A DNA stretch of 64,000 nucleotides from Promethearchaeota archaeon (GTDB lineage Archaea; Asgardarchaeota; Lokiarchaeia; Sigyniarchaeales; SOKP01), in contig JABXKD010000006.1 in assembly GCA_013375475.1 (NCBI GenBank), positions 13,301-77,300 of the forward strand. Direction: 5' to 3'. Below the pieces are notes generated by a model that was not told where the DNA came from, searched no databases, and saw only the letters and a list, made by a program, of their open reading frames with translations. The position numbers and the translations under genes were made by a program. This document shows, piece by piece, positions 40,063 through 41,314 of this stretch (position 1 is the first letter of the stretch; every line of letters starts with the position of its first letter).

Positions 40063-41314
40063 ATTTCAGATTTAGACCAGGTAAAAGCTATAAATGCGAG
40101 ACAAATTAAGCTCCTTCAAGAAAGCGGGATTAGCACGGCGGAAGCGCTTGCTATGTCTCCGCATAATATCATATCGGAGATTGACGGATTAGGCGATAAA
40201 ACAGCCAAGAAGTTGATTTGGAACGCGCGAAATGCTTTAGGTATGACAGAATTCATTATTGCGGAGGATATTGACGAGAATACCGAGTACATAACCACTG
40301 GTTCTTCCGAGCTAAATAGGATATTGGGCGGTGGATTCCAAACAGGAAAGCTCACCGAGGTATACGGGCCGTTTAAAAGCGGAAAAACTAATTTAGCTCA
40401 CACGATTGCCGTGACTATCCAACTTTCGAGGAAGCAAGGAGGTTTAGGTGCTGCTGTAGCTTATATCGACACCGAAAATACTTTTTCAAAAGAAAAAATA
40501 AAAAGAATCGCCAAAAGGTTCGAACTCGATCCGAAGAAAGTCCTCTCACAGATATTCCACGCCAGGATTTATTCCTCTGATCATCAATCACAGATGGTTC
40601 AAAAAGCAGAAACATTGTGTAAAACCAGGAACGTTCGACTGATCGTAGTAGACAGTTTAATGGCTTTGATGAGGGTTGAATACGTGGGTATTGGCATGTT
40701 AGCTCGCCGTCAGGGCGTTCTCAACAACATGATCCATGGGCTTTCGCGAATTGCAGAAACTTACAATTGTGCCGTACTTTTAACTAATCAAGTGTCGACA
40801 AAGATGATGGGTATGTTCTCGGCAGATGACGCAATTGGAGGAAATAATGATTTCATGCATCATGAATCATTTCTAAATAGTTGCTCATGGTTGCCACTTC
40901 CGTGTCATGTTTAAGACCAAAGGATTTTCCTCAAATAATTCACTAAAAAGAAGGGCTGTCATTGTGGATGCTCCTGATTTACCACCCGAAGAATGTGAAT
41001 TTTTCATTACTTCAGCAGGAGTAGCGGATACAGAAAAAGCAGGTGTCCCGGACATTAAATCGATAGACTTTGAGGTCGAGGAATTGTTTGAAGAGGAACC
41101 AGAAGAAGTAATTGAGGAATCACCAGAGATACCTTTAATAAATGTAAAAGGAATAGGAGCGGGTACTGCTGAGAATCTGGAAGAACACGGGATTACATCG
41201 ATTGAGAATTTAATAAAATCTGATCCGGAAGAGATAGCTTCAAAGATAAGTGGAGTTTCTTCGAAGAAAGTTATCGAGTGGCAAACGAGTGCAAAAGAAC
41301 TAATCAAAATCTAA
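40063..41314 (+). CDS. radA: RadA/Rad51 recombinase paralogue; two exons (40063-40845 + 40877-41314), about 406 aa, with C-terminal HhH domain
   Basis: N-terminal HhH domain, GPFKSGKT, YIDTE, IVVDS, TNQV. Removing 31 nt gives DAIGGN-IVAHGCHFRV...VDAPDLPPEEC.F.IT..GVAD. Start inferred at ATT after GGAGTTGA SD. Confidence 0.85.
40846..40876 (+). other. 31-nt bulge-helix-bulge intron in radA
   Basis: 4-bp helix GGAA(40840-43)/TTCT(40871-74), 3-nt bulges ATA(40844-46) and AAA(40875-77), inner hairpin and outer exon stem. Cuts after the second bulge nucleotide restore the frame. Confidence 0.8.

Follow-up and report, generated by a model that had tools for sequence, protein, structure and literature searches.

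We analysed a window of 64,000 nucleotides (nt) from the genome of a Promethearchaeota archaeon (assembly GCA_013375475.1, contig JABXKD010000006.1, positions 13,301 to 77,300 of the forward strand; coordinates below are window positions), which carries a gene of the RadA/Rad51 recombinase family whose reading frame is broken by a 31-nt insert. The listing of open reading frames (ORFs) gives two overlapping ORFs in different frames at this place, 40153-40914 (253 aa) and 40907-41314 (135 aa), and the insert (AATGATT...TTCTAA) separates the codons GAC GCA ATT GGA GGA AAT from ATA GTT GCT CAT GGT. An original prediction, made from the letters of the window, described a bulge-helix-bulge (BHB) intron in a radA mRNA at 40831-40884, and re-reading the sequence confirmed both the letters of the insert and its position. 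Based on the analyses presented below, we consider it very probable that the insert is a BHB intron, spliced by the endonuclease EndA and the ligase RtcB, in the coding mRNA of a RadA/Rad51 paralogue of Promethearchaeota, that is, of Asgard archaea of the Lokiarchaeia type (Table 1).

Translation of 40054-40845 yields a RadA-like sequence that ends in SADDAIGGN and contains readable Walker A (GPFKSGKT) and Walker B (LIVVDS) motifs, and translation of 40877-41314 starts IVAHGCHFRVMFK / IVAHGCHFRVMFKTKGF and runs to the stop codon. Searches against Pfam assigned exon 1 to Rad51 (PF08423, 1e-58) with an N-terminal helix-hairpin-helix (HhH) domain (HHH_5, PF14520), and exon 2 to the last part of Rad51 followed by a second HhH domain (PF14520, 2.8e-10, residues 86-140). 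The gene thus combines the ATPase core, the N-terminal HhH domain and the match to a curated RadA model that mark the RadA/Rad51 family. That model, the NCBIfam RadA equivalog NF003301 (316 positions), is matched by exon 1 over positions 4-269, with 265.6 bits for this exon alone against a cut-off of 259, and by exon 2 over positions 270-315. As the match is continuous over the junction, removal of exactly 31 nt restores an uninterrupted RadA core.

The best solved relative of an intronless orthologue is RadA of Pyrococcus furiosus (PDB 1pzn, 1.2e-64), and that alignment runs continuously through RPIGGH/ILAH. The junction lies at what we take to be the site just after the L2 DNA-binding loop of RadA, as the original prediction also assumed. 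Splicing places IVAHGCHFR directly after IGGN, precisely the order of intronless orthologues, which are colinear at this codon boundary, so that the conserved GGN-IVAH motif is rebuilt as foreseen. The spliced mRNA would encode a single protein of 406 residues if translation starts at the ATT codon at 40063.

Table 1. Features of the interrupted RadA paralogue, its surroundings and the intact RadA genes of the same genome
Feature	Location	Strand	Basis or remark
TATA-like box TTTATATA, putative promoter	39999..40006	+	read from the sequence; function inferred
Shine-Dalgarno-like box GGAGTTGATA	40046..40055	+	7 nt upstream of the proposed start codon
Exon 1 (261 codons): N-terminal HhH domain and most of the ATPase core	40063..40845	+	translation, Pfam, NCBIfam
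hBHBh'-like RNA motif	40831..40884	+	minimum free energy fold; base-pair tallies over alignments of 7, 9 and 38 alleles
Probable BHB intron, 31 nt	40846..40876	+	missing in RNA contigs of X5, X6 and X8; present in DNA contig of X2; orthologue comparison
Exon 2 (145 codons and stop): last RadA-core strands, acidic linker, C-terminal HhH domain	40877..41314	+	translation, NF003301, HHH_5, purifying selection
423-aa protein with repeated treble-clef zinc fingers (DUF4379)	41417-42688	+	directly downstream of the RadA paralogue
FEN1/XPG-like nuclease	46189-47283	+	PF00867, 1.7e-20; 5 kb downstream
Intact RadA, 420 aa, long acidic N-terminal extension (L002)	G000:C52:1854-2597		
Intact RadA, 332 aa (L003)	G000:C215:38231-38983		

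Sequencing runs of marine and other sediments, both of DNA and of RNA, contain the gene. Contigs of three metatranscriptomes, X5 and X8 (study P3) and X6 (study P4), and of one DNA run, X2 (study P1, whose sample differs from the possible source sample), were placed on 40054-41314 at 90% likeness. One contig each of X5, X6 and X8 joins 40845 to 40877, skipping 31 nt between ends AA..AA, with the position of the joint ambiguous by 1 nt since A40846 and A40877 are the same letter. The X5 contig (record 12) is 402 nt long with 0+1 letters differing from the window and a shorter flank of 166 nt; that of X6 (record 17) has 206 nt, 0 differing letters and a shorter flank of 44 nt, and that of X8 (record 24) has 426 nt, 3+0 differing letters and a shorter flank of 56 nt. 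RNA depth in the bin 40828-40870 equals the value expected from coverage only up to 40845, indicating that no RNA contig spans the intron. By contrast, the 850-nt DNA contig of X2 (record 6, 40213-41062) includes the insert with 0 differing letters, and the 40845 to 40877 joint was not found in this run. Orthologues in other species are only 68-81% identical in nucleotides, and the spliced contigs therefore belong to the species of the window. The joint corresponds to symmetric cuts, each after the second nucleotide of its bulge, with exact joining of the exons. The spliced junction in RNA, the insert in DNA, and the removal of 31 nt by cuts after the second bulge nucleotides had all been put forward in the original prediction, and each was borne out. 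The RNA evidence consists of assembled contigs, which drop rare variants and do not reveal expression level, strand or transcript ends.

Alternatively, the skip in RNA could be a polymorphism in DNA, if an intronless strain of the same species were transcribed or contaminated the libraries. Precise intron loss has been repeated in this gene family, one genome bin (G008) holds both intron-bearing and intronless copies, and the RNA and DNA runs come from different studies (P3 and P4 against P1). We nevertheless regard this explanation as very unlikely: the spliced contigs differ from the window by 0-3 letters over 206-426 nt, whereas every known intronless orthologue differs by about 19-32% in nucleotides; the skip occurs in all three RNA runs and the DNA run shows the insert only; and the two metagenome alleles with the 65-nt junction fragments closest to that of the window (L136 and L170) carry the intron. 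Moreover, exon 2 is under purifying selection in the shifted frame in eight genes, which requires that the insert be removed at the level of RNA or translation.

Two further observations were made in these runs. RNA contigs of X5 and X8 (1218 and 722 nt, depth 16-20) match the window only at the conserved 40895-40941 and continue as the orthologue of a related species (..GGGGGAAAT/ATTGTGGCACAC..), and the paralogue of another species is thus also transcribed in those sediments. A single X2 contig joins 40613 to 40786 with one side of 32 nt and unknown letters between; we attribute it to another organism or to an assembly artefact.

RNAfold of 40826-40890 returned the BHB as the minimum free energy structure (-17.9 kcal/mol). 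The central helix of four base pairs (40840-43/40871-74, GGAA/UUCU) consists of G40840.U40874, G40841-C40873, A40842-U40872 and A40843-U40871, and is flanked by two bulges of 3 nt on opposite strands, 40844-46 (AUA) and 40875-77 (AAA). The intron hairpin forms the inner stem (40847-52/40865-70 and 40854-57/40861-64, with a loop of 3 nt), and the exons pair in an outer helix (40831-37/40878-84, extended by 40826-29/40885-88; 7+4 pairs in the allele of the window). Each bulge lies 3' of its strand of the central helix, which is the canonical arrangement of tRNA introns, and EndA is known from the tRNA literature to cut after the second nucleotide of each bulge.

In the mechanism that we propose, the pre-mRNA would fold so that GGAA at the end of exon 1 pairs with UUCU near the 3' end of the intron. 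This would place a central helix between two 3-nt bulges, with the intron hairpin inside and the exon-exon helix outside. EndA would then cut once in each bulge, after 40845 and after 40876, and RtcB would ligate the exons. EndA and RtcB are the probable acting enzymes, judging from the gene content of the genome, and we infer that splicing is largely constitutive.

The genome indeed encodes both enzymes. Its two matches to the EndA catalytic-domain family (PF01974; 99.1 and 70.4 bits) are a 200-aa protein on contig C215 with the pattern VVYKKG...EHSPFIAHV...RKKF, which we take to be that of a catalytic subunit, and a 202-aa protein on contig C133 that has no histidine at the corresponding place. 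The pairing of a catalytic-looking paralogue with one that is not points to an (alpha-beta)2 enzyme with broad specificity. A preprint reports that 44 of 60 Asgard genomes encode two EndA paralogues in keeping with this form (bioRxiv 10.64898/2026.10.13.758758). RtcB is represented by a single match (PF01139, 560.7 bits). ARAGORN called introns in 14 of the 29 tRNAs of the genome, which is a rough figure, and found no tRNA in the window.

Comparison among alleles supports the core of the motif. In an alignment of 36 distinct alleles (A3), all cells of the central helix (100%) and 89.8% of those of the inner helix are paired, and six of the nine inner pairs have changed on both sides, for example G-C/A-U, U-A/C-G and G-C/U-A/C-G. 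Doubly changed cells number 57, compared with 20.4 +/- 3.4 in shuffled alignments, and none of 500 shuffles attained 57. When the 3' partner is displaced by 1-3 columns, pairing falls from 85.1% to 27-47%. The inner stem of the original prediction thus covaries across alleles. Smaller alignments of 7 and 9 alleles agree, with the outer helix paired at 72-76% overall. The motif is thus tightly kept within the intron and looser in the exons, a pattern that fits an endonuclease of broad specificity.

Several results weigh against a BHB intron or limit how much the structure can contribute. The outer helix is weak: the 3' bulge is faced by two unpaired nucleotides, G40838 and A40839 (a register with A40839-U40878, as originally proposed, is an equally possible alternative to the unpaired A40839), only 75.8% of its cells are paired over the 36 alleles, and four of its 11 pairs are mostly broken. 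The description of the fold as a canonical hBHBh' structure consequently held for the central helix, the bulges and the inner stem, and the outer helix is better described as relaxed than as strictly canonical. The folding energy is only moderately unusual (z = -2.55; 3 of 200 shuffled sequences fold as well). The RNAalifold consensus of 38 alleles is weak (-3.45 kcal/mol); it recovers the inner stem and three of the four central pairs, and pairs column 21 rather than column 18 with column 46, shifting one A-U pair. The RNA and DNA runs come from different samples, which formally leaves room for an intronless near-identical strain or for carried-over DNA, and unspliced RNA, if present, would not show in contigs. 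Finally, we scanned the genome for BHB structures between open frames (structure: a 4-bp central helix, at least three inner pairs, at least four of five outer pairs and 0-2 nt of slack; frames: an intron of 15-110 nt, a minimum of 80 open codons upstream and of 50 downstream, and an early stop in the unspliced frame). The scan gave 1021 matches against 1038 for a decoy of mirrored geometry and hence no excess, and the radA site ranked third with a score of 34, the top decoys scoring 35 and 34. Structure and open frames alone are thus not beyond chance; it is the joint in RNA, the comparison of orthologues and alleles, and the colinear homology that make the intron real.

Most matches of the scan are neighbouring genes, and the scan is too crude to exclude other mRNA introns. 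Among the 14 top-scoring real matches, which were read individually, the best (score 39; a 60-nt candidate at G000:C122:2574-4547, L133) is a false positive from tandem repeat domains: the upstream ORF of 589 aa ends naturally with a complete repeat domain (DGDIVEWTGG and stop), and the downstream ORF is a second copy of the repeat, a fragment of 68 aa.

Selection on the coding sequence separates the intron from readings in which the gene is broken. In the spliced frame of exon 2, the proportion of nonsynonymous differences (pN) is 0.02-0.27 and that of synonymous differences (pS) 0.36-0.97 (28 pairs among eight intron-bearing genes). The ratio of nonsynonymous to synonymous substitution rates (dN/dS) is 0.04-0.17 where it is computable, that is, where dS is unsaturated. 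Exon 1 of the intron-bearing genes has a pN of 0.02-0.14. Exon 2 is open to its stop codon in all of them, and together with the purifying selection this rules out decay of exon 2. A one-off allele with elevated dN/dS in exon 2 was the pattern named in the original prediction as speaking against an intron; we found low ratios, and the insert recurs in relatives.

A broken gene would be either a pseudogene or a gene split into two polypeptides, the second restarting at the ATG of ORF 40907-41314. This ATG overlaps the stop codon of the unspliced frame at 40912-14 (ATGTTTAA), an arrangement typical of translational coupling, and gene callers would annotate two ORFs. The insert, however, is missing in RNA, both exons are under strong purifying selection, the covarying BHB would have no role, and the methionine also occurs in intronless orthologues (VMFK), which argues that it is no dedicated start. 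We consider a broken or split gene scarcely plausible. To translational hopping or programmed frameshifting over the 31 nt on unspliced mRNA we assign a negligible chance. The gap contains a hairpin, as in phage T4 gene 60, but the codons at its borders, where a bypass would need a matching take-off and landing pair, differ (AAT at 40843-45 against TAA ending at 40876), and the RNA itself lacks the 31 nt, neither of which matches a system of the T4 gene 60 type.

The intron is one of a family of inserts at the same codon boundary. We resolved the junction at 55 genomic loci: an insert of 31 nt occupies the identical boundary in nine, and the other 46 are intronless and colinear. Within the genus, both exons were placed at 26 loci, seven with the insert (in five genomes) and 19 without; none of seven loci in other genera of the order has it, and among 22 further loci on genomic contigs two do (L060 and L068) and 20 do not. 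Loci cut by contig ends were left out (L018, L038 and L043 in the genus and L026 in another genus). At all intronless loci, the tblastn match of exon 1 ends on the base adjoining the start of the exon-2 match. A degenerate motif comprising the 3' end of the intron and exon 2 retrieved 40 metagenome contigs; two were too close to a contig end, and the remaining 38 represent 31 distinct fragments, in 30 of which the end of exon 1 sits 31 nt upstream. These comparisons answer the call for relatives with a same-position insert and compensatory changes in the BHB, as both were found. All introns are 31 nt long and share a 3' TTCTAA end, and most share an ATATTT core, by which they look homologous. 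A blastn-short search of the genome with the intron returned the locus itself and no second copy; 43 matches to a loose regular expression looked unrelated.

In an IQ-TREE phylogeny of 30 orthologues (without the 5'-truncated L051, L039 and L024), the six intron-bearing rows fall in one subclade of 12 rows, mixed with intronless rows, and well-supported branches force at least three intron changes. A FastTree phylogeny of 51 rows including L060 and L068 forces at least four. The intron may have arisen once and then been lost precisely several times, or recombination may have carried it from allele to allele; the pattern fits both histories and does not separate them.

The exceptional metagenome fragment, L151, does not have exon 1: on its contig, exon 2 (840-1289) is preceded by only the last few nucleotides of the intron (..TATTTCTAA), and upstream lies an unrelated ORF of 190 aa. 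Such a fragment might have arisen by rearrangement at the intron or by chimeric assembly, or might represent a gene that is divided into pieces. Some bins hold several copies of the paralogue, namely one intronless and two intron-bearing copies in G008 (L007, L036, L037) and two intron-bearing copies in G042 (L042, L051). With an estimated contamination of 6-9%, these bins may combine separate strains, in which case the copies would not be true paralogues.

The genome (3.92 Mb in 288 contigs, 32.5% G+C) encodes two other, intact RadA proteins, on contigs C52 and C215, and a RadB-like protein. The intact proteins are 40-43% identical to the product of the interrupted gene, which is thus a third, divergent paralogue. 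Both intact genes are present in nearly every searched genome of the order. A search of 42 genomes of the genus (E <= 1e-100) detected the third paralogue in 25, and it also occurs in other genera of the order (Promethearchaeota / Promethearchaeia / Promethearchaeum), names that agree with the Lokiarchaeia of the original prediction. These archaea accordingly have two canonical RadA genes plus, in some, a third paralogue with an HhH tail. The extra C-terminal HhH domain, the two intact RadA genes and the patchy presence set the interrupted gene apart from the principal strand-exchange RadA. In calling the transcript a radA mRNA, the original prediction was right about the family (NF003301, PF08423) and wrong in so far as it implied the only radA of the organism.

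The start of the gene is unusual. From the stop codon at 40051-53 up to 40153 there is no in-frame ATG, GTG or TTG, and the conserved HhH domain begins near 40066. We infer that translation starts at the near-cognate ATT at 40063, downstream of a Shine-Dalgarno-like box that is presumably complementary to the 3' end of 16S rRNA; a box of this kind (GGAGTTGA) is kept upstream of many orthologues, as is a stretch resembling ctttata(a/t)a. The codon homologous to this ATT in 51 orthologues is ATG in 25, ATT in nine, ATA in six, ACG in four, TTG in one and GTG in one, and the five other rows look misaligned by one or two positions. These counts suggest initiation at near-cognate AUU, AUA or ACG codons in many species. 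As an alternative, translation may begin at an out-of-frame TTG or ATG and reach the frame by a +1 slip in an A-run.

Such weak starts hint at tightly limited expression and bear on whether splicing is conditional. In that extension of the intron reading, the intron would be kept under some conditions and removed when the paralogue is needed, retention giving a truncated protein of 261 residues with a 22-residue out-of-frame tail that ends at the stop codon 40912-14. The intron always measures 31 nt (1 mod 3), so that retention always shifts the frame, and many alleles have kept it even though it can evidently be lost precisely. For the cbf5 intron, negative regulation has been proposed (PMC2738675). 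Against a switch, all three RNA runs have the spliced form only, in contigs that would drop rare variants, and 46 of the 55 genomic orthologues are intronless, which makes any regulation dispensable. Overall we think it rather unlikely that the radA intron acts as a switch.

The neighbours of the gene include a cupin, a P-loop ATPase, the DUF4379 zinc-finger protein and the FEN1-like XPG nuclease, and no repair operon is evident among them.

A spliced radA intron would mean that EndA/RtcB splicing acts on mRNA in Asgard archaea. The paralogue would be the second host gene family for BHB introns in coding sequence, after cbf5, and it would belong to the archaea most closely related to eukaryotes, with direct evidence of its splicing in environmental RNA. 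Genes of this kind are split or truncated by gene callers: the protein of 406 residues shows up as ORFs of 253 and 135 residues. The approximately 39 natural alleles, polymorphic for presence and absence, provide material for studying gain, loss and codon constraint of BHB introns.

The closest known case is the cbf5 pre-mRNA intron of Crenarchaeota, reportedly described by Watanabe in 2002. Like the radA intron, it is a short intron of the BHB type inside a coding sequence, and its removal is needed for a conserved protein. Gain, secondary losses and mis-annotation are described for it in Yokobori 2009 (PMC2738675), and both introns are patchily distributed, with an inferred gain, precise secondary losses and mis-annotation by gene callers. 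They differ in host gene (here a RadA paralogue), in phylum (Promethearchaeota of the Asgard archaea rather than Desulfurococcales/Sulfolobales), in the length of the radA intron, fixed at 31 nt in every allele seen, and in evidence, which is environmental RNA contigs for radA and not RT-PCR or in-vitro cleavage. According to PMC7714728, the crenarchaeal cbf5 intron was the only archaeal mRNA intron on record besides the one in the 5' untranslated region of Haloferax HVO_1309, in agreement with the statement in the original prediction that mRNA introns are best known from cbf5 and that none was known in radA. The searchable full texts, which leave out subscription journals and supplements, did not mention a BHB intron for radA or for any protein-coding gene of Asgard archaea.

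The HVO_1309 intron of Haloferax volcanii is an mRNA target of EndA, as we propose for the radA intron; its position is in the untranslated leader rather than in the reading frame, and its host is a euryarchaeon (PMC7714728). The BHB introns of Asgard tRNAs (bioRxiv 10.64898/2026.10.13.758758, available part) share with the radA intron the presumed machinery, a motif that is half exonic, repeated gains and a patchy distribution. In contrast to theirs, the exonic half in radA is constrained by codons (GGA-AAT / ATA-GTT-GC) and not by tRNA structure. In that part of the preprint, protein-coding genes are mentioned only as neighbours for matching tRNA loci.

A further comparison is with the HAC1/XBP1 system, of which the radA intron is not a member. 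In HAC1/XBP1, as proposed for the radA intron, structures in an mRNA are cleaved by a protein endonuclease, the exons are sealed by a ligase of the RtcB type, and the C-terminal frame changes. The HAC1/XBP1 nuclease is IRE1, which recognises twin stem-loops and not a BHB, and regulation by stress is established for HAC1/XBP1 and not for the radA intron. This unconventional splicing is mentioned in PMC13149111. As a speculation in which we place little confidence, BHB micro-introns of Asgard archaea may extend beyond tRNA and rRNA and colonise protein-coding genes, persist there over long times, move or be lost precisely between alleles, and act here as a regulated gate on a Rad51-like paralogue with a weak start codon. 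If such a gate existed, mRNA splicing by EndA and RtcB with the logic of HAC1/XBP1 would already be present in the archaeal relatives of eukaryotes.

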